From IMG/VR virus record IMGVR_UViG_3300019766_000003: DNA of 41,502 nucleotides, one strand, 5' to 3'. Source of the stretch: a virus. Position numbers and translations under genes: made by a program. The notes beneath the pieces were generated by a model that was given only the letters and a program-made list of their open reading frames with translations, did not search any database and was not told the DNA's origin. This document shows positions 9,901 to 39,147 of the stretch, in pieces; the first letter of the stretch is position 1, and each line of letters opens with the position of its first letter.

Positions 9901-10695
9901 GGAAATCAATCTGTAAACGCTGGTTTTGTGCAAGTCGACCTTGGAGATGTTGCAGAGAGGAACATTCTGGAGCAGATAAACCAAGCGCCAGTATGGGAGC
10001 AAGCACCTTTTCTTGCTTACCCGCCTGGCAATGAGCTGTACTATGAAGAAGGTCGATATGTTTATAGTAGACTGATCAATGCTGATATAGCCGACGGGAA
10101 ACTTGTACCATATGAGGCTGGAGGCTTTTTTGAACCTGGCGACAAGCCTATGTTCAACCCGCCAGACAAGGCTTTTTTCGACAACACAGCCCTTCCGATT
10201 CTGTACCACTTTATTTACGAGGTGCAGCCTAGGCACATAGGCGAAAAAGCTTTTGTATCAGCTGTTTTAATCGGAGAATACACGCTTGAATTTCGTGAGA
10301 TTTCAGCGCCACTTGACGATTCTAACGAATTTATACCTGTTCCAGAGGCTTTTGAAGTACACGACACATTCGGTTATGAGTTTAGGTTTAAGACTATCCC
10401 AGGTCAAACGGTTTCAGACACAACAACATCAGATATAATTGTATCAATCGACGTAGACGATATAGAAGAGGTTATACAAGAATTTTCAGTGCCAATCGGC
10501 GGGGCGAGGTTGCCAATAGTAAAAGAGTACACAGCTATAAAGTATGTCTTACTTGCCCTAAAATCTGAGGCTGGCGGAGCAATATCAGCACAGTACGAAG
10601 ATAAAGACAATATCTTAGGCCCAAAAGTGATAATTTACGACAAAGACAAAAATAGCGTCGCTGGGACAATCTCAGCGCAGGTTAGGGGGTATTAA
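6883..10695 (+). CDS. Host-specificity / tail tip protein (lambda gpJ-like) with an N-terminal gpI-like module
   Basis: 1270 aa. The N-terminal ~220 aa carry GGGGDGGKN followed by a Gly/Ala-rich hydrophobic stretch, as in lambda gpI. The central region is alignable by eye to gpJ (ALVELEIKASDQLSG..., NCAALAAYLIQNG). Confidence 0.8.
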   Translation: MKTEYNLPALHAPSEIKKDSVIIRFRKDPFRPEIDIFHGPSGISALAALRIAFRANGISTARISQYAVFVDGVYCSYTDLPFMVLYEDQVVHVAATVHGGGGDGGKNPITTIISLAAIAIAPQFGTWAANGIGFDIGVGLSELGVVNTFGALEAVQGIVGAIAAGAVVMGAGMLSSAIAPVSAPSANGISGRPTQEESKKLWSIDGSRNKVDLYGVVPLVIGKVRFSPRLAAVPYSYLKDEDKFYRYLYVVSLGDVRLSGFKIGDTALETFEGVTKFEHQAWSGEALEYFDTAIKEETLSILLKQSSGWQTRTTPLKTTRASVEVTFQTGLEKIDNKGNANELTIDFEVRFREFGSATWGASTAYSVTNKTRNPFRRGFEIELPSSGQWDISIRRITEDPDYEATTETTLDKAHWTVLRSFTEYKSIDYRGRRMTLVELEIKASDQLSGSIDEFSCVCESKGLVTDDFGSWTEAYTSNCAALAAYLIQNGDAVGEAEDRTEIDHIAYKEFYDWCELYGWEYNSVITSRQSVRTTMHNILAAGRASYLYSFGSASGQHSVVFDDPSQPIIDAITPRTAWGFSERKEFLSKPIDGLRFRFINEEKDYQEDERIVYADNVDASNAQNVIEWEQDGVTTPDLVYKHGRLRLAELELRPAEYTFNTDFRSIAYSRGSRIKAAYDVTYWGIVQGRVMKASDDGTYITSIVIDEEFTMETGKNYQIEMMGMGQSETYAVNTVVGTGRELFFTAQVPIANGPVFDDLVGLGETSRTSVNLLVTSVQPESDITARITAVDAADNLMDAISGPIPAFDSNITAPSRVFKEKPSTPIIESVRSDEWAMQVTSGGNLVPRVQITFSVPAGGVEAVTTVCYGRKVGEQAWLTLGTSGAADGVVYANGVEEGAEYQIRLQAQTRLGVASDFSAVTNETVVGKSTPPPDVSAVQFVDGYVTWLYESTPIDFAGFEVRYSTLSTATWDNSLAASGGLILNTKFDARSYNGALTFFVKAYDVAGNQSVNAGFVQVDLGDVAERNILEQINQAPVWEQAPFLAYPPGNELYYEEGRYVYSRLINADIADGKLVPYEAGGFFEPGDKPMFNPPDKAFFDNTALPILYHFIYEVQPRHIGEKAFVSAVLIGEYTLEFREISAPLDDSNEFIPVPEAFEVHDTFGYEFRFKTIPGQTVSDTTTSDIIVSIDVDDIEEVIQEFSVPIGGARLPIVKEYTAIKYVLLALKSEAGGAISAQYEDKDNILGPKVIIYDKDKNSVAGTISAQVRGY

Positions 10696-11738
10696 TGACA
10701 AACATATTTACATCGCAAGATACAGGCGAACAGAAGCTTGAAAAAGACTTGAACTATCTTGCAATTTTTTCCAGAGAGTCAGGCGGAACTGCATACGCTA
10801 GCGTTCTTGAGATTTCGAGTACGCCTTCTCTTGAGATTGATTCATACGGTTCAAGAAATAACACAAACGGTATACCAGACCTCTGCCTGTTCAACAGAGC
10901 TTCTTCGGCTACTTTCACGAACCAGCTAGGCCAGATAGAGACGGCTGCAGTGGATCAGTTGAGACATGACTATGACTCGAGTGGTAAATATCTTGGAATT
11001 CTGATAGAAAACCAAAGAACAAACTTCTTACTCAACAGTGCAACGCCAGTAACGCAGTCTGTCTCTCTTTCTGCGGGAGATTACACAACGAGCGTTTATG
11101 GCTCTGGTGATTGTACTTTATCCGGTGGAGCCACTGGAGTCGCAACAGAGGGAAGTGATGTTGTGTTCAACTTGGCCGCTCCAGCTTTAGTAACATTTAC
11201 AGTGTCTGGTTCACTCGATAGATTTCAGTGTGAGGATGGTAAGTATTCAACATCGTTTATATCAACTGCTGGAGTGTCTGCCACAAGAGCAGCTGATAAT
11301 TTTAGGGTATTAACATCCGCTTTTCCGTTCAATTCATCTGAAGGCTCTGTTTTGATTGAGTATAACAGTAGCAACTCAGGAACATGTGCGTGCTCCATAA
11401 ACGACCAGACATACCAAAACAGGCTAACACTGATAAAGAACGCTATCGGCGTTGATAGCTTCAGGCTTTATGTTGCATCTGCAAATGTATTTACAATTGA
11501 CATAGAAAGCTTAAGCTATGCTGCTGCAGCATTTTCCTATAAAGATAGTAGCTTTTATGTTTCTGCAAATGGTAGCGATCCGTTATCTAGCTTAGTTGGA
11601 ACAGTTCCGGCCTTTACACAGTTTGCACTAGGACAGATAACTGGTGGGTTTAACTGTTTGGACGGGCATATAACAAGGGTCGCATATTTTCCAAAGGCTA
11701 TATCGCCAGACGAATTAAAGCTTACATCGAGGAAGTGA
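10695..11738 (+). CDS. Putative tail fibre / receptor-binding protein
   Basis: 347 aa, Ser/Thr/Gly-rich, directly downstream of the J-like gene (ATTAATG). The motif SATRAADNF recurs in phage fibre and lectin-fold proteins. Confidence 0.4.
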   Translation: MTNIFTSQDTGEQKLEKDLNYLAIFSRESGGTAYASVLEISSTPSLEIDSYGSRNNTNGIPDLCLFNRASSATFTNQLGQIETAAVDQLRHDYDSSGKYLGILIENQRTNFLLNSATPVTQSVSLSAGDYTTSVYGSGDCTLSGGATGVATEGSDVVFNLAAPALVTFTVSGSLDRFQCEDGKYSTSFISTAGVSATRAADNFRVLTSAFPFNSSEGSVLIEYNSSNSGTCACSINDQTYQNRLTLIKNAIGVDSFRLYVASANVFTIDIESLSYAAAAFSYKDSSFYVSANGSDPLSSLVGTVPAFTQFALGQITGGFNCLDGHITRVAYFPKAISPDELKLTSRK

Positions 11739-11739
11739 T

Positions 11740-11964
11740 ATGTATAATGATTTTTTTTTAAAATTCAGCGATGCCGAACACGCTCGCTCGGTTATCGGAA
11801 CAGCTCCAAATGGTGAAATTACTGGCATTTATAAAGACTGCTTTTTATTACTAGATCAATATGAAGATTGTGTTATTGTATCCTTGAGGGGAGAATTTTT
11901 GCCAAGTGAGCTTTCCAAGTATGAGACATCAAAACCATCAAGCCTGGTTAGGGTTTGGGCGTAG
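11740..11964 (+). CDS. Hypothetical protein (74 aa) between the fibre genes
   Basis: Start is tightly coupled (TGATATG). No recognisable motif. Confidence 0.5.
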   Translation: MYNDFFLKFSDAEHARSVIGTAPNGEITGIYKDCFLLLDQYEDCVIVSLRGEFLPSELSKYETSKPSSLVRVWA

Positions 11965-11973
11965 GGGGTACAC

Positions 11974-13029
11974 ATGGCTGATTATCCACAACATTTCTCA
12001 ATAATTGAACTTGCCAGTTCAGTTCTTACAAAGCTCAACCAGATTATTGACGCTGGTATAGAACGGACATTTGCTTCCGGAGTCAGCTACGACAACACGG
12101 TCTCCGGCCTGACATCTTCAGATGTCAATGGCGCAATCGACGAGGTAAATGGTCTTGTCGACACTGCAGTAGATGATGCTAACACAGCGATAACAATAGC
12201 TAGCGCAGTCGATGCAAAGATAGGCGAAGTTTCAGTAGCTAACAACGGTCAGTTTTGCGCAGTGGTCGACGGCAAAATTACACCATCGTACAAGATCGCT
12301 ACACAGGTAGAGGCCGAGGGCGGGACGTCTTCAACAACGCTCATGACACCTGAGAGAACTGATCAGGCGATAAATTCCCTCTCCCCGAACAGAAGGAGCC
12401 TGAGGTACTACACCTCAGATGGCGAGCTATTGCCGGACGGTACTTTTGGTCCTCTGGACTTTAACGAGCCAGATGCAAGACAAGTTCAGGTTACTGCCAT
12501 CGGAGGAGGAGGCGGTGCTTACGCCGCTTCAACACCAATAACGTCATCGACTGCAATACATCCTGCTGCCTCTGGTGGTGCTGCAAGGGCTGTTTTTTCT
12601 GCAATTGGATTCGATGAAACAATAACAATCGGAACTGGCGGAACGTCAGGCACAACACCAACAGATGGCGCCGACAGCTCTTTTGGATTGCTAATAGTAT
12701 GTGGAGGTGGGAATAAGGGACAACTTTTGCCAGCTGCGAACTACGACAACATAGTATCTAGGGGGATTGTGTCTTACAACTCACATGACTTAATAACAAT
12801 CCTTGACGTTGAAACTGTTTACAATGACTTTGTTGGCGTTCCTCCCAATTACACGCATAGACCACTAGGCGGATATCCAGTTGGGTTTAGTCAGCTGAAG
12901 GGGCTTTTTGACTCTACCCCTGATGGGCATGGTGCTGGCGGCGCTGGATATAGGACAAACACAAACACATATGAGCTTGTAGACGGACAGCCTGGCCTTG
13001 TTATTGTCGAGGTGTTGTCATGGGCATAA
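11974..13029 (+). CDS. Tail fibre protein with a C-terminal glycine-rich domain
   Basis: RBS GGGGG. Fibre collar-like motif EAEGGTSSTTLMTPERTDQAI. C-terminus AIGGGGGAY...GAGGAGYR...GQPGLVIVEV. Confidence 0.6.
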   Translation: MADYPQHFSIIELASSVLTKLNQIIDAGIERTFASGVSYDNTVSGLTSSDVNGAIDEVNGLVDTAVDDANTAITIASAVDAKIGEVSVANNGQFCAVVDGKITPSYKIATQVEAEGGTSSTTLMTPERTDQAINSLSPNRRSLRYYTSDGELLPDGTFGPLDFNEPDARQVQVTAIGGGGGAYAASTPITSSTAIHPAASGGAARAVFSAIGFDETITIGTGGTSGTTPTDGADSSFGLLIVCGGGNKGQLLPAANYDNIVSRGIVSYNSHDLITILDVETVYNDFVGVPPNYTHRPLGGYPVGFSQLKGLFDSTPDGHGAGGAGYRTNTNTYELVDGQPGLVIVEVLSWA

Positions 13030-13268
13030 CCAACGAAGACAGGCTTTTGGACTCAATCGGGCAGCTATTTGAGCAAAACCGCGAGCTACTAACCAAGGTG
13101 ACTAGGATTGAGACAAACCAGTCTAACCAGCAAAAGCAGATTGATTCTATCCAGAAAGAGTTAAAAGAAATACAGGGTGATAGGAGAAAGGTTTTTGCCA
13201 TGTGGTGGGTTATGACACCGCTCGCAGCTGGAGCCACTGCATACCTTTTCAGGCACTTCTCTGGTTAA
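13020..13268 (+). CDS. Tail-anchored coiled-coil membrane protein (82 aa), function unknown
   Basis: Overlaps the fibre gene's 3' end. Heptad-rich N-terminus and a C-terminal TM segment, FAMWWVMTPLAAGATAYLF. Confidence 0.5.
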   Translation: MGITNEDRLLDSIGQLFEQNRELLTKVTRIETNQSNQQKQIDSIQKELKEIQGDRRKVFAMWWVMTPLAAGATAYLFRHFSG

Positions 13269-13282
13269 GTTTACAAAATAAA

Positions 13283-13314
13283 GGCTATCTGATACTTTTC
13301 AGGTGGCCTTTTTT
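13283..13314 (+). terminator. Rho-independent terminator closing the tail operon
   Basis: 10-bp stem (ggctatctga / tcaggtggcc, two G-U pairs), 6-nt loop, T6 tract at 13309-13314. Confidence 0.6.
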
Positions 13315-13320
13315 AGTGGG

Positions 13321-13377
13321 GAAAATTTAAAAAAATTCAGAAAAATTTAAAAAAATTCAGAAAAATTTAAAAAAAAT
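13321..13377. repeat. 2.8 tandem copies of the 20-bp unit AAAAATTTAAAAAAATTCAG (phased A-tracts), abutting the ATG at 13376
   Basis: Read directly: units at 13321-13340 and 13341-13360, and a partial unit at 13361-13376. Confidence 0.9.
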
Positions 13378-13621
13378 GTACTACATAACAACTAAGCACG
13401 TTGCGATATTTGGAATAATCTGGACCACGGTTCTCGCTGTAATTCCTTTAATGGTTTTTCAAAAGCTTAAAGAGGTTCAAAAGTCCTTAAAAGACCTAGA
13501 GAACAAGCAAGCAAGTGCAGAGATGGCAGACTCTTTACTGACTAAGGCGTTGCAACTAACAGAAAAAGGCAATATTGACCTCAGTGTCAACTCTGCCGGA
13601 AGAGATATAGAAAATGGGTAA
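13376..13621 (+). CDS. Small type-II membrane coiled-coil protein, paralog A (81 aa)
   Basis: N-terminal TM VAIFGIIWTTVLAVIPLMVF, then a coiled-coil region. The C-terminus ends DLSVNSAGRDIENG. No SD; the leader is A-rich. Confidence 0.6.
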   Translation: MYYITTKHVAIFGIIWTTVLAVIPLMVFQKLKEVQKSLKDLENKQASAEMADSLLTKALQLTEKGNIDLSVNSAGRDIENG

Positions 13622-13898
13622 TATTTATTTATTGGCTGGTGCTTGCTTCTTATCTGTTCTTATCTCTTCTGCGATTTGTACTGGCGTGTTGTTTGTCAAA
13701 TACGGCGACAGATACAAGCGGATAGAAAAAGATATGGACTCAGTTAAAGAGCAGCAGCGAGAGAACGCAAGAGAGATATCAGCGGTTAAAGACCAAGTAC
13801 AATACACACAATCAAAGCTCTGCAACGATGTATCACGCCAGCTCAGTATAAATTGTGCAGGAAACGACATTGTAAATGGCGGGAATAGCAATGGCTGA
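13614..13898 (+). CDS. Small type-II membrane coiled-coil protein, paralog B (94 aa)
   Basis: Start overlaps the stop of paralog A. TM LLAGACFLSVLISSAICTGVLFV. The C-terminus QLSINCAGNDIVNGGNSNG matches the tail of paralog A. Confidence 0.6.
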   Translation: MGNIYLLAGACFLSVLISSAICTGVLFVKYGDRYKRIEKDMDSVKEQQRENAREISAVKDQVQYTQSKLCNDVSRQLSINCAGNDIVNGGNSNG

Positions 13899-14109
13899 TA
13901 TTGAACGCCAGCAGCAACAGAAAATAGCTTGTATTGCCGAGTTCATGAAGGCTATAGAGCGTGGTTACAAAGACTCTATGAGTGGTGATACTGTTGAGGT
14001 GAAAGCATCCCTATCAATCAAGCAGGGTGGAATATGTTCGCTAAAGATAAACAGTGGTAAAACAATATCAAACATTTCTGACCTCATTGACAGGTCAAAG
14101 GCTCTTTGA
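13891..14109 (+). CDS. Hypothetical soluble protein (72 aa)
   Basis: The ATG at 13891 overlaps the upstream stop (ATGGCTGA). The track ORF starts at 13876. Confidence 0.5.
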   Translation: MADIERQQQQKIACIAEFMKAIERGYKDSMSGDTVEVKASLSIKQGGICSLKINSGKTISNISDLIDRSKAL

Positions 14110-14148
14110 TAGCATCCTTCTAGCTAAGAGAACCCTTTAGGACCAATC

Positions 14149-14185
14149 AGGCCACTACCCTTTGTCGGGACGGTGGCCTTTTTTT
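14149..14185 (+). terminator. Rho-independent terminator
   Basis: Stem aggccac / gtggcct with an inner ccc/ggg extension, then a T7 tract at 14179-14185. Confidence 0.65.
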
Positions 14186-14197
14186 ATGGAGTTTTAT

Positions 14198-14512
14198 ATG
14201 ACTGCTGTACAAGAAGCTGTAGCGATAATGGACGCTTTTATTCTTGCCATAACAGATGCTGACAACAGTAATTTCAGCGTCTATTCTGACTCTTTGCCGC
14301 CATTGACAGTATACGATAATGGCACAAAGTTTTTTGCGTGGGACGTTGAAAACAGTCGGTTCTTTGTTGATAAAAACTATGTCATGTCAATCCCGTATGA
14401 CTTTAGAAAGACTCCTGAGATTTTAGACATGGTTACAAAGGTTTGCCAATGCACACACGACACTTGCCTTGAATCGATGGCTTATAGTTGGAATCAGACC
14501 ATGGGCGCATAA
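14198..14512 (+). CDS. Hypothetical protein (104 aa)
   Basis: GGAG lies 6 nt upstream of the ATG at 14198. The track start at 14162 would include the terminator hairpin. Confidence 0.6.
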   Translation: MTAVQEAVAIMDAFILAITDADNSNFSVYSDSLPPLTVYDNGTKFFAWDVENSRFFVDKNYVMSIPYDFRKTPEILDMVTKVCQCTHDTCLESMAYSWNQTMGA

Positions 14513-14516
14513 AATA

Positions 14517-14558
14517 GAAAATCCCCCGCTTTCCTCTTGGTTGGCGGGGGTTGTTTGT
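14517..14558. terminator. Bidirectional terminator at the convergence of rightward and leftward transcription
   Basis: Stem cccccgc / gcggggg, flanked by an A-rich run on the left and a T-rich run on the right. Confidence 0.55.
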
Positions 14559-14566
14559 TAATCTTC

Positions 14567-14719
14567 CTATTTTTCTGGAATGATAAACATTTCTGCGTCC
14601 TTGATAACCTCTATAGAATCCTGTCCAAGTGGGAAGTGAAGTCCTTTTTCATCTATAACAGAGAAACAATTGTCTTCAACAAATACGCCGGACTCCGGCA
14701 TATCTTTAACTATTCGCAT
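14567..14719 (-). CDS. Small hypothetical protein (50 aa; below the track cut-off)
   Basis: Manual translation: MRIVKDMPESGVFVEDNCFSVIDEKGLHFPLGQDSIEVIKDAEMFIIPEK. AAGGA lies 7 nt upstream. Last gene of the leftward operon. Confidence 0.4.
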   Translation of the reverse strand: MRIVKDMPESGVFVEDNCFSVIDEKGLHFPLGQDSIEVIKDAEMFIIPEK

Positions 14720-14762
14720 TTCATCATCCTTTTTAAATAGTTGGTTGGGGTATCTTTTTCGT

Positions 14763-14782
14763 GACGTTACGAAAATGATCTA
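14763..14782 (-). repeat. Conserved intergenic element, copy A (minus strand TAGATCATTTTCGTAACGTC)
   Basis: 20/20 identical to 15368-15387, with flanks ~80% similar over ~30 bp. Contains the hairpin TTTTCG-N8-CGAAAA. Confidence 0.85.
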
Positions 14783-14783
14783 T

Positions 14784-15068
14784 TTACTTAGAAACACCTC
14801 TGAGCTTCAAGATAATGCTGTGGGCGTTTGGTTTATCAAAACACTGCATTGCAGCAGCCCGAATATTATCAGTGAGGTAGACTACGCAAGTTTTCCACGG
14901 TGCTGTTTTAGGTGTAAATTCATACACCTCTGAATTTGCTCCCCATGTGTCAATCTCGTACCCTGCATCTGTCTTTCTCAATTCGTCTTGACCAAATACA
15001 CCTGCACTGGAAACAGATGCAAATGCTATCACCATAGCCATAGCCATAGAAACAATAATCTTTTTCAT
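14784..15068 (-). CDS. Small secreted protein (94 aa, cleavable signal peptide)
   Basis: MKKIIVSMAMAMVIAFASVSSAG followed by a hydrophilic domain. RBS AAGGAGA. Confidence 0.7.
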   Translation of the reverse strand: MKKIIVSMAMAMVIAFASVSSAGVFGQDELRKTDAGYEIDTWGANSEVYEFTPKTAPWKTCVVYLTDNIRAAAMQCFDKPNAHSIILKLRGVSK

Positions 15069-15107
15069 GTAAAATCTCCTTTTTAAATGGTTGGATGGGT
15101 TTGTTTG

Positions 15108-15347
15108 TTATTTTCCGTTTATCATTCTTTCTATTTGAGGAGTGATTATAATTCCCTGCTCGACAAGCTCTTGCACTGCCTCTATTCGCTTCTTTTCAAT
15201 CCTTGCCTCGTGTCCAGCTGGTGAAATATAGCTCATAAGGAAAATCAGTCCAAACAATGGCACTGCTGATTTTAAATAAAAACATAAGAAGCAAAGCACA
15301 CCGATCAACACGATGTTATATACCATGCACCAAGCGTATTCAGGCAT
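15108..15347 (-). CDS. Small integral membrane protein (79 aa, two TM segments)
   Basis: Hydrophobic segments AWCMVYNIVLIGVLCFLCFYL and VPLFGLIFLMSYI. RBS AAGGAGA. Confidence 0.65.
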   Translation of the reverse strand: MPEYAWCMVYNIVLIGVLCFLCFYLKSAVPLFGLIFLMSYISPAGHEARIEKKRIEAVQELVEQGIIITPQIERMINGK

Positions 15348-22392: not shown

Positions 22393-23220
22393 ATGCACCG
22401 TGGCTATGTAAAACTATGGAGAAAGTCTATTGACTCTGGCCTGCTTCAAAACGCAGAGGCGTGGCAATTTATGTCGTGGTGTCTCTTAAAGGCTACGCAT
22501 AAGCCACAAAAGCAGCTCGTTGGAAAACAGGTTGTAAAGCTAGAGGCTGGTCAGTTTGTTTTCGGTAGAAAGTCAGCAGCGAAGGACTTGTGCTCAACCG
22601 AGCAAAAGATAAGAACATCTTTGAACTTGCTTAAAAGTCTTGATTTTCTAACCATCAAACCAACCAACAAATTTAGCATAATTACAGTTGTAAATTGGGG
22701 GACTTATCAGCAAGAGCAACCAACAAACAACCAGCAACCTAACCAACAAGCAACCAACAATCAACCAACAAGCAACCAACAAGCAACCACAAACAAGAAT
22801 GATAAGAACATTAAGAATGAAAAGAATAAAGAATATTCCCCCGAACTTGAGAAGTTCGTGGACTCGTTTCAAAAGACTATGGTTGATACTTACGGTGGAC
22901 TTGCACCAAAAATAACAACCAGCAGCAGAAACACTTCACTGGATACGGTTAACAAGCTCATTCGGATTGACGGTCATTCACTGGAAGAGATTAGAGCCGC
23001 GATGCTGTGGGCTGTGAAGGATGACTTTTGGAGCAAGAATGCTCGTTCACTCGGACAACTCAGAAACAAGAGCAAGTCAAACGGTATGACGAAATTCCAA
23101 AACATATGGTCTGCTATGAAGAGTGAGCAAGACAAGAAACCAACTGTCGGGAAAACACCAACCTTTTACAAGGAAAACAACGATGAACTTCCAGCCTACG
23201 CAAGAGGACCGATCGGGTAA
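22393..23220 (+). CDS. Replication initiator / replisome organiser
   Basis: N-terminal winged-helix pattern YVKLWRKSIDSGLLQN...WQFMSWCLLKA...GQFVFGRKSAAKDL. Q/N/T-rich linker. Followed by a DnaC-like loader. Confidence 0.7.
   Translation: MHRGYVKLWRKSIDSGLLQNAEAWQFMSWCLLKATHKPQKQLVGKQVVKLEAGQFVFGRKSAAKDLCSTEQKIRTSLNLLKSLDFLTIKPTNKFSIITVVNWGTYQQEQPTNNQQPNQQATNNQPTSNQQATTNKNDKNIKNEKNKEYSPELEKFVDSFQKTMVDTYGGLAPKITTSSRNTSLDTVNKLIRIDGHSLEEIRAAMLWAVKDDFWSKNARSLGQLRNKSKSNGMTKFQNIWSAMKSEQDKKPTVGKTPTFYKENNDELPAYARGPIG
22718..22795. repeat. About 7 tandem 11-bp repeats (consensus AACCAACAAGC) inside the initiator gene, followed by an AT-rich AAGAAT-repeat stretch to ~22840. Candidate origin iterons.
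   Basis: Units at 22718, 22729, 22741, 22752, 22763, 22774 and 22785, read directly. Confidence 0.6.
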
Positions 23221-27569: not shown

Positions 27570-27817
27570 TTCAGAGCCGAGTATTGTAAGGGCGTTAAGG
27601 CAGGCTGGCGCATATGTACACCGCCTGAACAGGTTTGATTTTGGTTGGCTTTAGAGGGAAATGGTTTCCTATTGAAGTGAAATCTGGAGATAGGAAACTT
27701 ACCAGCAAGCAGGTGCAAATGATACTTGAAATGAAGAACATTGCACCTTTTTACGTAGCCAGAGACCCACAAGAGGCGTTGGATATAATATTTGAAAAGG
27801 AGGTAGAGAGTGAGTAA
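27538..27817 (+). pseudogene. PD-(D/E)XK (VRR-NUC/Hjc-like) nuclease split by an apparent +1 frameshift at the T4 run 27639-27642
   Basis: Frame 1 reads MKSHHAQKRDDSEPSIVRALRQAGAYVHRLNRFD and stops at 27652. Frame 2 continues (L)VGFRGKWFPIEVKSGDRKLTSKQ... Joined, they give the E...D...ExK nuclease motifs. GGAGA lies before the ATG at 27538. Confidence 0.55.
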
Positions 27818-28205
27818 GTTCTACTTAGGGAAAAGAAGTATCGGACGATTGAGCAGGGTTCACCCGCTATTGTCTGCTTGCGTGTGTCTGGCAATTAAAA
27901 AGACAACGCTTGATTTTACTGTTCTGGAAGGAGCTAGAAGCGTTGGACGACAAGAGCAACTTTACGAGACTGGTGCATCTCAAACCTTGGACAGTAAGCA
28001 CCTTGTGCAAGAGGACGGCTATTGTCACGCTGTAGACCTTGGACCATTAGTTGATGGCAAAGTACCTTGGGATACTTGGAACGCCTTTGTGGTGGTCAAT
28101 GAGGCCATGCAAAATGCTGCAGAAGAACTTGGAGTAACTATCACTTGGGGCGGAAGCTGGACGAACTTTAAAGATGGGCCTCATTTTCAAATTGAAGGAG
28201 TATAA
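27810..28205 (+). CDS. Endolysin, peptidase M15 (VanY-like / L-alanyl-D-glutamate peptidase family)
   Basis: GTG after AAGGAGG. LEGARSVGRQEQLYETGASQTLDSKHL...GYCHAVDL...WGGSW...DGPHFQ. Confidence 0.85.
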   Translation: MSKFYLGKRSIGRLSRVHPLLSACVCLAIKKTTLDFTVLEGARSVGRQEQLYETGASQTLDSKHLVQEDGYCHAVDLGPLVDGKVPWDTWNAFVVVNEAMQNAAEELGVTITWGGSWTNFKDGPHFQIEGV

Positions 28206-28208
28206 AAC

Positions 28209-28397
28209 ATGAACGAATATGTTCAACTTGTATTGGACAATTGGGGGTTGATTTTCCCGATTGCCGTAACTGTGGCGAGTGTAGTTGTAAAGCTAACTCC
28301 GACAGAAACAGACAACAAGGTTCTTGCTGTTGTGCTTAAATGCTTTGAGAAAGTGGCAATGAACAATAAACCAGTAGAGGTAAAAAGTGAAAAGTAA
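28209..28397 (+). CDS. Candidate holin (62 aa, one TM segment)
   Basis: Immediately follows the endolysin. TM WGLIFPIAVTVASVVV and a charged C-terminus. Confidence 0.45.
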   Translation: MNEYVQLVLDNWGLIFPIAVTVASVVVKLTPTETDNKVLAVVLKCFEKVAMNNKPVEVKSEK

Positions 28398-28779
28398 ATT
28401 TATCGCATTTGTTCTGATTGTTGCATTCGCAATCATGGCGGCAGGGTGCAAGCAACCACATATCAACAATGTGCCTGAACAAAATCAGGAGATTGAGCAG
28501 TTTATTCATACTGCAAGCATCACGCTCAATGCACTGAGTCAGCAAAAGACAGCAATCCTTGAATCCGCAGTTATGGCCAAAATCAATGGCAAGATCACAG
28601 GGGAAGAGTTAAGCAAAGTTGTTGTGCCGTGCATTAGATTCGACCATGCATTTAGCCATGCTGGCAGTATCTTGCTCGACTTGCGAAAAAATGTTGATTC
28701 CGGACTATCCCCGTCAACCGCGTCGGTAGAGTCAGCACTTGATGGTCTTAAAAAAATCTTACTTGAACTGGAGAAATAA
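28387..28779 (+). CDS. Lipoprotein (candidate outer-membrane spanin component)
   Basis: Signal plus lipobox FAIMAAG-C. Overlaps the preceding gene. Lies in the lysis cassette. Confidence 0.6.
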   Translation: MKSKFIAFVLIVAFAIMAAGCKQPHINNVPEQNQEIEQFIHTASITLNALSQQKTAILESAVMAKINGKITGEELSKVVVPCIRFDHAFSHAGSILLDLRKNVDSGLSPSTASVESALDGLKKILLELEK

Positions 28780-29215: not shown

Positions 29216-29761
29216 ATGAAGATTAAAATTATTTTAGAGCAGCACAAATTATGGCTCGAAACAGATGGAAAAGATGGAGAGCGCGCAGACCTCAGTCACA
29301 CAAACCTCCGTGGCGTAAACCTCAGTGGCGTAAACCTCAGTCACACAAACCTCAGTGGCGCAAACCTCAGTGGCGTAAACCTCAGTGGCGTAAACCTCCG
29401 TCACACAAACCTCAGTGGCGCAGACCTCAGTGGCGTAAACCTCCGTGACGCAAGCCTCAGTGGCGCAGACCTCAGTGGAGCAAACCTCAGTGACGCAGAT
29501 CTCAGTGGCGCAAACCTCAGTCACGCAGATCTCAGTGGCGCAAACCTTGACTTCTCTTGTTGGCCTCTCTGGTGCGGGTCTCTTGGTGTAAAAGTTGATG
29601 ACAAGTTTGTGTGCCAGCTATTTTTTCACTGGTGTAAACTTGACGTATCTGGGTGTTCTCCGTTCATCAGGTATGCGCATCGAGTAATTAGCAAAGGTTG
29701 GGCATGCCTTGGTAATCGCTTTTGTGACACAAGATCAGATATGAACAATAAAAGGCTTTAG
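29216..29761 (+). CDS. Pentapeptide-repeat protein (Qnr/MfpA-like beta-helix) with a Cys/Trp-rich C-terminal domain
   Basis: About 18 consecutive A(D/N)LxX pentapeptides (DLSHT NLRGV NLSGV NLSHT NLSGA ...), then FSCWPLWCGSLGV... Confidence 0.9.
   Translation: MKIKIILEQHKLWLETDGKDGERADLSHTNLRGVNLSGVNLSHTNLSGANLSGVNLSGVNLRHTNLSGADLSGVNLRDASLSGADLSGANLSDADLSGANLSHADLSGANLDFSCWPLWCGSLGVKVDDKFVCQLFFHWCKLDVSGCSPFIRYAHRVISKGWACLGNRFCDTRSDMNNKRL
29286..29550. repeat. About 17 tandem 15-bp units (consensus CCTCAGTGGCGTAAA) encoding the pentapeptide repeats
   Basis: Read directly. High nucleotide identity leaves multiple frames on both strands open. Confidence 0.9.
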
Positions 29762-38084: not shown

Positions 38085-39098
38085 ATGGCACTTGTACAGC
38101 TTGCGGACATTATTGTCCCTACCATTTACCTGGATATTCCGGCCGTTGATTCCCCTGAAAAGATTGCGCTATTGCAGTCTGGAATTGTAACGCAGTCCCC
38201 ATTCTTCAATGAACTTGCAGGTCGTGAGGGTTGGGTTCGAGAGCTTCCGTTTTGGAATGACATTGATCCTACATCCGAGCCTCTTTTGGCTACAGACGAT
38301 CCAGCAGATGTTGGCGTAGCTCAGAAGATCAACCAGTCTGAACAGATTACACGCAAGTCTATTCTGGCAAAGGGATGGAGTGCGTCAGACCTCACAGCAC
38401 AGATTAACATGGGCGCAGAACCCATGACGCAGATACGCAACCGAGTTGATATGTACTGGTCCCGCCAGTGGCAGCGCAGACTTATTGCCACTGCAAACGG
38501 CGTACTTGCAGACAACGTAGCAAACGATTCCGGCGATATGGTGAATGATATTGCTATTGAAGACGGCGATAACGCAACAGCAGCAAACCTTTTCAGCCGC
38601 AGCGCTTTTACCGCATCCGCCTTTACACTCGGTGACATGTTTAACGACATTCAGGCAATTGCCGTTCACTCTGTTGTGATGAATCGTATGGTGGACAATG
38701 ATGACATTGATTACATTCCTGATTCTCAGGGGCAGTTGACTATCCCAACATTCATGGGCCGCCGTGTTATCGTTGACGACTCCATGCCAGTTGTTGCTGG
38801 TGCTACATCCGGCTTTAAATACACATCCATTCTTTGGGGTTCAGGCGCATTCGCATACGGGGAAGCAGAACTTCCAAACTCTGTAGCTGTAGAACGTGAG
38901 GAGGCGCAGGGCAACGGTATGGGCGTTGAGACACTTTGGACCCGTAAACAGTGGATTCTCCATCCTGCAGGCTTCAAGGTAAGTGCTACTCCGGCAAACA
39001 ACAGCTTTACAATCGCAGAGCTTTCAGCCGCAGCAACATGGGACCGTGTCGTTGTGCGCAAAAACGTGCCAATGGCATTCCTGATTACTAACGGCTAA
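38085..39098 (+). CDS. Major capsid protein
   Basis: 337 aa ORF after the scaffold gene, followed by a strong terminator. Composition and position are typical. Confidence 0.8.
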   Translation: MALVQLADIIVPTIYLDIPAVDSPEKIALLQSGIVTQSPFFNELAGREGWVRELPFWNDIDPTSEPLLATDDPADVGVAQKINQSEQITRKSILAKGWSASDLTAQINMGAEPMTQIRNRVDMYWSRQWQRRLIATANGVLADNVANDSGDMVNDIAIEDGDNATAANLFSRSAFTASAFTLGDMFNDIQAIAVHSVVMNRMVDNDDIDYIPDSQGQLTIPTFMGRRVIVDDSMPVVAGATSGFKYTSILWGSGAFAYGEAELPNSVAVEREEAQGNGMGVETLWTRKQWILHPAGFKVSATPANNSFTIAELSAAATWDRVVVRKNVPMAFLITNG

Positions 39099-39110: not shown

Positions 39111-39147
39111 AGGGTGCTTGGCTTAATGGTCTCGCACCCTTTTTTTA
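39111..39147 (+). terminator. Rho-independent terminator after the capsid gene
   Basis: agggtgc-N16-gcaccct followed by T7. Confidence 0.75.

Follow-up and report, generated by a model that had tools for sequence, protein, structure and literature searches.

The BhlA/UviB and FtsB/FtsL (DivIC) proteins are polypeptides of about 70 to 120 residues in which an N-terminal transmembrane (TM) helix and a coiled coil are combined with a short segment for interactions at the C-terminus, and FtsB and FtsL form a pair of the same architecture that acts as a hetero-oligomer. Two adjacent genes, here called A and B, in the virus genome IMGVR_UViG_3300019766_000003 of IMG/VR (the window, i.e., the whole stretch of 41,502 nucleotides (nt) that we analyzed) encode proteins that resemble them in architecture, by analogy only; both end in a common peptide, and their genes lie in a block of five, X, A, B, C, and D, at the junction of the tail module and the early operon. 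Holin components of the XhlA/gp24.1 type do no harm by themselves but become lethal when a second membrane protein accompanies them (PMC6316719; PMC5589764). Our favored reading of the new locus, to which we give a probability of roughly 30%, is that X would form a late inner-membrane complex with A and B (perhaps also C) that contributes to membrane permeabilization or times it, with the common peptide serving for docking.

On the + strand, a fiber gene (11974-13029, 351 amino acids (aa)) is followed by X, the terminator T1, a 54-nt A/T-rich repeat, A, B, C, the terminator T2, and D. The genes and the two copies of the C-terminal motif are listed here with their positions in the window; all are on the + strand.

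13020-13268, + strand: gene X, open reading frame (ORF) for 82 aa, with a heptad coiled coil at about residues 8-56, a DRRK motif, and a weakly hydrophobic C-terminal segment
13376-13621, + strand: gene A, ORF for 81 aa, with a TM helix at residues 9-27, a coiled coil at about 28-66, and the tail at 68-81
13580-13618, + strand: tail motif of A, LSVNSAGRDIENG, found by regular expression at the C-terminus
13614-13898, + strand: gene B, ORF for 94 aa, with a TM helix at residues 10-28, a coiled coil at about 29-78, and the tail with a GNSNG extension
13842-13880, + strand: tail motif of B, LSINCAGNDIVNG, found by regular expression
13891-14109, + strand: gene C, ORF also given by gene callers, for a soluble protein of 72 aa, translationally coupled to B
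14198-14512, + strand: gene D, for an acidic, soluble protein of 104 aa, the last gene on the + strand, conserved along with the block

An earlier note on this DNA had described A, B, and C as a three-gene unit, and this is borne out by the ORFs and by the 8-nt overlap of each gene with the next (ATGGGTAA for A/B and ATGGCTGA for B/C). A starts without a Shine-Dalgarno sequence, and the ATG of D has a GGAG 6 nt ahead of it. We place the true start of C at 13891 because the ATG at 13876 is lost in a sister lineage (AAT to AAC); gene callers likewise give a protein of 72 aa. This sister lineage is represented by L001, a 2.4-kb contig that is the one diverged relative spanning the whole block from X to D and the basis of all substitution rates given here. 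In this comparison, the ratio of nonsynonymous to synonymous substitution rates (dN/dS) is 0.25 for A, 0.08 for B, and 0.09 for C, and the proportions of changed nonsynonymous (pN) and synonymous (pS) sites are 0.11 and 0.77 for X and 0.26 and 0.82 for D, with pS saturated for both. The TM part of A diverges fast (62% identity), and D is 60% identical. Judged by their codon substitutions, all five genes from X to D are real and under purifying selection. C has no family or PDB match, and its AlphaFold model from a single sequence (predicted local distance difference test score, pLDDT, of 58) is unusable for fold comparison. No homologues of D were found in Pfam, PHROGs, tblastn searches against phages, IMG/VR, or the PDB, and the identical D protein occurs in no other gene context.

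A and B both terminate in the pattern [LI]S[VI]N-x-[AS]G[RN]DI-x-NG, and 9 of the 14 residues of this tail are identical between them (DLSVNSAGRDIENG vs. QLSINCAGNDIVNG). BLASTP aligns the two proteins at 29% identity (E 3e-5), none of 3,000 shuffles (25 ± 4.6) reaches their Smith-Waterman score of 58, and the score of the tail itself is reached by none of 20,000 C-terminally anchored shuffles. For the soluble parts without the tail, by contrast, the score of 29 (vs. 22 ± 4.2) is matched by 231 of 3,000 shuffles and is not significant. The paralogy of A and B that the earlier note had proposed thus stands as far as the highly significant similarity of the tails goes but does not extend to the remaining soluble parts, so that the case for it is made by the tail together with the shared architecture and the adjacency of the genes.

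Four tails are available for comparison (LSVNSAGRDIENG in A and in its L001 counterpart A', LSINCAGNDIVNG in B, and ISVNASGRDIING in B' of L001), and all four proteins end in Asn-Gly. The tail of A is the same in L001 as protein, and the last 45 nt of the gene are identical as DNA too (pS of the whole gene 0.58); this stretch also holds the ribosome-binding region and the start codon of B, which probably add a constraint on the DNA. Between the tails of B and B', codons for G, I, and N have changed synonymously (GGA/GGG, ATT/ATA, AAT/AAC), and the tail DNAs of A and B are about 69% identical, the codons differing synonymously at five of the nine identical residues. Since the residues are kept through synonymous codon changes, we conclude that the tail peptide is under selection at the protein level. 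The codons also indicate that the tail is neither a recent duplication nor a product of gene conversion and that the duplication is old; the possibility raised in the earlier note that the similarity is a recent local duplication, with the motif absent from homologues, is not what we find, as the only homologues keep the motif. A third copy of the tail was sought in C (LKINS-GKTISN vs. LSVNSAGRDIEN) and rejected, the resemblance being marginal for A (77 of 5,000 shuffles) and absent for B, with nothing in BLASTP.

The common plan of TM helix, coiled coil, and tail that had been suggested for A and B is confirmed by hydropathy and by the heptad register. The best 19-residue Kyte-Doolittle windows score 2.44 in A (residues 9-27) and 2.30 in B (residues 10-28), and a single, uninterrupted heptad register runs through each of A, B, and X, leaving the membrane in A and B. 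AlphaFold models B as one helix over residues 2-89 (pLDDT 76) with a tail of low confidence (51-58), a shape too plain for a fold comparison to be informative. In the PDB, a profile built from A and B finds GCN4-pIQI coiled coils (E about 4e-4). The N-terminal flanks of B and B' are free of K and R (MGNIY and MDDIC), and four to five K/R residues stand just after the TM helix; by the positive-inside rule, this charge pattern favors an N-out/C-in orientation, and we lean toward this predicted topology for A and B. The architecture belongs to a familiar class, that of small bitopic coiled-coil membrane proteins of phages. However, neither A nor B matches Holin_BhlA, DivIC, or FtsL of Pfam at E ≤ 1, and the tail motif is unrelated to these families.

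In a word-indexed search of 5.8 billion proteins, A and B each retrieved a single relative besides the query itself, and X retrieved two; the databases hold one other cluster for A (P0004) and one for B (P0002, 76% identical). A HMMER search with the A/B profile, exhaustive over 1.84 billion cluster representatives, gave nothing beyond these two sister-lineage clusters, which marks A and B as a lineage-restricted orphan family. A, B, C, and D have no significant match in Pfam, PHROGs, NCBIfam, PADLOC, or the PDB sequences (in PADLOC, X gives nothing but coiled-coil noise), and the tail motif likewise falls outside the known families in these collections, as the earlier note had supposed. Searches of phages by tblastn with B, X, D, and the lipoprotein discussed below gave nothing usable, and in IMG/VR no relatives came up in scans with D, X, or the A/B alignment.

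L001 and a further contig, L012, differ from the window just upstream of the block. Compared with window positions 10695-13029, L001 (1-766) and L012 (1-777) have a different fiber end and a 194-aa protein in place of fiber genes for 347, 74, and 351 aa, and the replacement stands directly upstream of the conserved X, with the breakpoint at the start of X. By its gene content, this difference is a swap of the receptor-binding module. As the block from X to D stays constant while the upstream fiber genes are exchanged, we regard it as part of the lineage backbone and not as a mobile insert, with a function that would not be tied to receptor specificity.

The start of X overlaps the stop of the 351-aa fiber gene, and this translational coupling suggests that X is presumably a late protein. 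The earlier note had seen in X a mirror image of A and B; the order of a coiled coil followed by a C-terminal segment holds, but the membrane anchor is marginal, with a Kyte-Doolittle value of 1.32 for the hydrophobic segment VFAMWWVMTPLAAGATAYL at residues 58-76, and BLASTP gives no alignment of X with B. XhlA (PF10779) is the top Pfam match in three of three members of the X family (best E 1.2e-4). X also shows the layout of XhlA-type proteins, i.e., 82 aa with the coiled coil first and the (marginal) membrane segment last and a gene that follows the tail genes. It thus resembles XhlA and SPP1 gp24.1 in size (82 vs. 83 aa) and in having an N-terminal coiled coil and a C-terminal membrane segment, and it shares with SPP1 gp24.1 a gene position at the late operon's end, immediately behind the tail genes, with more small membrane proteins following. 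Unlike in these systems, X has no adjacent endolysin and the host is very probably Gram-negative, and A and B, with one TM helix and a coiled coil each, are not of the two-TM XhlB type.

The lysis cassette of the phage, an unusual one, lies elsewhere in the window and consists of three genes.

27810-28205: M15-type endolysin, soluble and without signal sequence (phrog_465, E 2e-49)
28209-28397: 62-aa single-TM protein, overlapping the lipoprotein gene by 11 nt
28387-28779: 130-aa lipoprotein with the lipobox MAAGC, long and helical-looking, with a weak Lpp-like match (E 0.0045)

An M15 endolysin that is soluble and without signal sequence implies that the phage needs a hole-former, and we recognized no holin family anywhere in the window and likewise no canonical spanin pair. 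The 62-aa protein and the lipoprotein have one cysteine each in their soluble parts, and no relative of the lipoprotein turned up in phage records. The statement of the earlier note that this cassette lacks an obvious i-spanin is correct in that no canonical spanin was recognized, but it passes over the 62-aa single-TM protein whose gene overlaps that of the lipoprotein; by its position, this protein is either a holin or a short i-spanin. Just past the cassette, at 29216-29761, lies a gene for a pentapeptide-repeat protein of 181 aa that matches several PHROGs of unknown function and is built on a 15-nt tandem repeat with 17.7 copies. A likeness of the A/B tail to pentapeptide repeats was considered and rejected, since the loose regular-expression match in this protein is in the wrong register.

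Several elements in or between the genes of the block, and one farther off in the late operon, may bear on the expression of these genes.

13283-13314, + strand: terminator T1, with a 13-bp stem including G·U pairs and then U6 (fold, own scan)
13322-13375, no strand assigned: A/T-rich 20-nt tandem repeat, AAAATTTAAAAAAATTCAGA, in 2.7 copies (Tandem Repeats Finder), with A-tracts phased at 10 nt, abutting the ATG of A
14087-14115, + strand: sigma70-like motif TTGACA-17-TGaTAGCAT in the 3' end of C (consensus scan, 10/12 plus TG; a consensus match only and partly coding)
14150-14185, + strand: terminator T2, an 8+3-bp hairpin and then U7 (fold, own scan; no Rfam family)
39112-39146, + strand: a third terminator (-15.2 kcal/mol, U7), directly after the putative major capsid gene at 38085-39098 and inside the late operon

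A built-in consensus scan missed T1 and T2, and both were found by our own genome-wide scan for hairpins with a T-run, in which they are two of only three strong terminators on the + strand. The two flanking terminators of the earlier note are thereby upheld as strand-specific hairpins followed by U6 and U7 that are near-invariant in L001. T1 folds at -21.2 kcal/mol (z -5.9) compared to -10.6 on the other strand, and the two terminators have GGTGGCCTTTTT in common. In L001, the T1 region is identical at 46 of 47 positions, with the sole change, G·U to G-C, improving the pairing, and the spacer between C and D (the 14087-14197 region, including T2) is about 95% identical, unlike the synonymous sites of the flanking genes, of which 56 to 82% are changed. 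The terminator at 39112-39146, inside the late operon, implies read-through or antitermination of late transcripts, and because such a strong terminator is found there as well, T1 and T2 are better read as attenuators that set a lower dose for the distal genes. L001 retains the -35 box, the spacing, and TGnTAnnnT of the sigma70-like motif at the end of C, and T2 lies about 30 nt downstream, so that from its layout 14087-14197 may specify a small RNA of roughly 65 nt or an attenuating leader for D; an Rfam scan of 12900-14800 found no family. The repeat at 13322-13375 is perfect, unique in the window, and degenerate in L001, and it is present in 1.7 copies in three metagenome contigs and in 2.7 copies in five others and the window; it could tune the expression of A or form bent DNA.

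The consensus scan detected no sigma70-like promoter between T1 and the ATG of A. Together with the near-typical GC content of the cassette (39 to 42% vs. 44.3% for the genome), the lack of an integrase, and the standing of the block as lineage backbone, this speaks against the insulated moron that the earlier note had made of these genes. The cassette resembles lambdoid morons such as lom and bor in lying, flanked by terminators, at a boundary of the tail module, but differs from them in having no detected promoter of its own, no marked compositional difference, and no sign of lysogeny.

We favor a role in lysis because X is XhlA-like, because the endolysin needs a hole-former, and because no holin is recognizable. 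In this reading, A and B would be bitopic inner-membrane proteins whose TM helix runs on into a coiled-coil stalk, and at the end of the stalk a conserved peptide, short and flexible, would dock onto a common partner, which may be the other paralogue, the co-translated soluble C, or X. Both would be made late and, by leak-through at T1 or by antitermination, at a lower dose than virion proteins; their + strand position at the end of the structural operon supports late expression, and read-through fits better than expression from a prophage since we found no integrase and since a terminator lies inside the late operon. X with A and B, and perhaps C, would then constitute an inner-membrane complex that joins in membrane permeabilization at lysis or times it. 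Such an arrangement would amount to a multi-component holin or holin accessory like PBSX XhlA/XhlB or SPP1 gp24.1/gp26, with its genes at a distance from that of the endolysin. That the genes are expressed late, that their products form a complex, how these are oriented, and that they act in lysis is what we infer.

A considerable number of points weigh against this proposal. The match of X to XhlA stays below the gathering score (20.4 bits vs. a cut-off of 34.7), and hhalign detects no significant similarity between X and SPP1 gp24.1 (E 0.057, probability about 1%). Neither A nor B is significantly homologous to a holin, antiholin, or XhlA family, their tails (EKGNIDLSVNSAGRDIENG and NDVSRQLSINCAGNDIVNGGNSNG) are neutral to acidic and not the basic C-termini typical of holins, and each has a single Met start without a dual-start motif. 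Their genes lie 14 kb from the endolysin and not next to it, and the 62-aa TM protein beside the endolysin is by position the simpler holin candidate. Furthermore, lysis partners of the XhlA type have been characterized only in Gram-positives, the Gram-negative cases being merely annotated.

Superinfection exclusion or another takeover of the host envelope, in which the tail would bind an envelope or divisome component of the host and so block incoming DNA or alter division or the envelope, is a doubtful but serious alternative. It would resemble T4 Sp or the peptide that FtsB and FtsL present on a membrane-anchored coiled coil, and the bitopic coiled coil with its short C-terminal peptide would be of this FtsB/FtsL type by analogy. 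Small proteins that are secreted or lie in the membrane (X, A, B, and the products of 14784-15068 and 15108-15347) crowd together where the tail module meets the early operon, as is typical of accessory regions for host interaction, and both the orphan status of the proteins and the fast divergence of the TM part of A would suit arms-race genes. The slow evolution of B and C (dN/dS 0.08-0.09), however, is not arms-race-like, receptor masking is made less likely by the lack of covariation between the block and the receptor-binding genes, and no match was found in PADLOC, Pfam (including DivIC/FtsL), or PHROGs. Exclusion proteins of lytic phages are also normally early, whereas neither an early or prophage promoter nor an integrase was found. 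The analysis neither supports nor refutes superinfection exclusion or the anti-defense function that the earlier note had also considered.

Quite improbable, in our view, is that A and/or B are i-spanin equivalents that would pair across about 14 kb with the lipoprotein of 28387-28779, using the tail as contact, and bridge or fuse the membranes at lysis. An i-spanin-like bridge had also been among the roles suggested in the earlier note, and the absence of a nearby lipoprotein gene and of conserved soluble cysteines as well as the wrong charges count against it. The lipoprotein gene, which lies in the lysis cassette, is the sole credible one in any frame, no canonical spanin pair was recognized, and Kongari et al. 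2018 (PMC6139136) describe 31 phages whose lipoprotein is an orphan and point out that i-spanin genes at a distance would evade detection. A and B also share with Rz i-spanins their small size and the arrangement of a TM helix at the N-terminus with a charged coiled coil behind it, and B matches Rz-like PHROGs in register, if weakly (phrog_8821, E 3.6e-4; phrog_739, E 0.018; phrog_4349, E 0.041). Yet the match to phrog_8821 is missing in the 76%-identical B' (E ≤ 0.1) and no spanin family matches A or A', so that the similarity of B to phrog_8821 is consistent with a likeness at the level of composition and architecture. A and B are much shorter than Rz proteins, with soluble parts of only 40 to 65 aa, and without an adjacent or embedded o-spanin gene; a six-frame lipobox scan with all start codons found no lipoprotein ORF within 12900-14600, and no known two-component pair is more than about 1 kb apart (PMC6139136). 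Intermolecular disulfides are general for two-component spanins (PMC6139136), but A lacks cysteine altogether, and the two soluble cysteines of B, C70 and C81, are replaced in B' by V and A, respectively. The charges of B and B' favor N-out/C-in, opposite to the type II topology (N-in, C-out), and the 62-aa TM protein whose gene overlaps that of the lipoprotein would be the more natural partner. Least credible, with very little weight on our part, is that the tail is a by-product of nucleotide constraint, imposed by the ribosome-binding site and start of the next gene, and not a functional peptide. Both motif DNAs do hold an AGGA/GGAAG-like element with A-ATG-G 9 to 12 nt later, and the 45 invariant nucleotides at the end of A would fit this idea in view of the much higher pS of the gene. 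B', however, lacks the first ATG, and its codons for G, I, and N have changed while the residues are kept, and the tail DNAs of A and B have diverged at their five synonymous positions; constraint at the RNA level may thus add to selection on the peptide, in A only.

The window, with 44.3% GC, is an essentially complete siphovirus-like genome, and its sequence recurs on a 41,608-nt metagenome contig. It encodes a lambda-like tail tip (tape measure, NlpC/P60, and a J-like protein of 1270 aa), a leftward early operon with SSB, Rad52-like, and Gp157-like genes, an N-like antiterminator, and Lar/DUF551 genes, and its large terminase is 64% identical to Jersey-like and Kagunavirus terminases. Megablast and blastn searches with the region yielded no DNA-level match in 50,697 phage records, and neither an integrase nor a Q-like antiterminator, both of which were searched for, was recognized among the genes of the window. 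A gpJ scan of GTDB genomes gave no close relative. To judge from the lambda J/K-like tail tip, the N-like and Lar/DUF551 genes of the phage, and its single outer-membrane-type lipoprotein, the host is very probably Gram-negative. An 11-nt tandem repeat (AGCAACCAACA, 6.7 copies) at 22715-22789 is located within a 275-aa ORF just upstream of a DnaC/IstB-like gene and may represent an iteron-type replication origin inside an O-like gene. The leftward operon ends at the same junction as the X to D block in three small genes (14567-15347, minus strand), two of which have the following products.

14784-15068, - strand: 94-aa signal-peptide protein, phrog_27004
15108-15347, - strand: 79-aa protein with two TM helices and a charged C-terminus, phrog_1930

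From their predicted features, these two are further envelope-directed accessory proteins.

About one in eight phages of Gram-negatives has no recognizable spanin, and many have no recognizable holin (PMC6139136). The phage described here combines a soluble endolysin and an orphan lipoprotein, no identifiable holin or spanin, and a conserved set of oppositely anchored coiled-coil proteins. Nothing in the evidence so far sets A and B apart from lysis or envelope functions of known kinds. We consider it improbable that X, A, B, and C are an undescribed envelope-acting module of a Gram-negative phage, which would be either a multi-component holin of oppositely anchored coiled coils or a distant inner-membrane partner of the orphan lipoprotein, and in which the tail N-x-[AS]-G-x-D-I-x-N-G would be a new docking motif either way. 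If these are not lysis proteins, they would be one more lineage-restricted set of small membrane proteins, as is common in phages, and of modest interest. If they are, they would represent a new sequence family with a new interaction motif and a Gram-negative counterpart of the XhlA-type two-holin arrangement.

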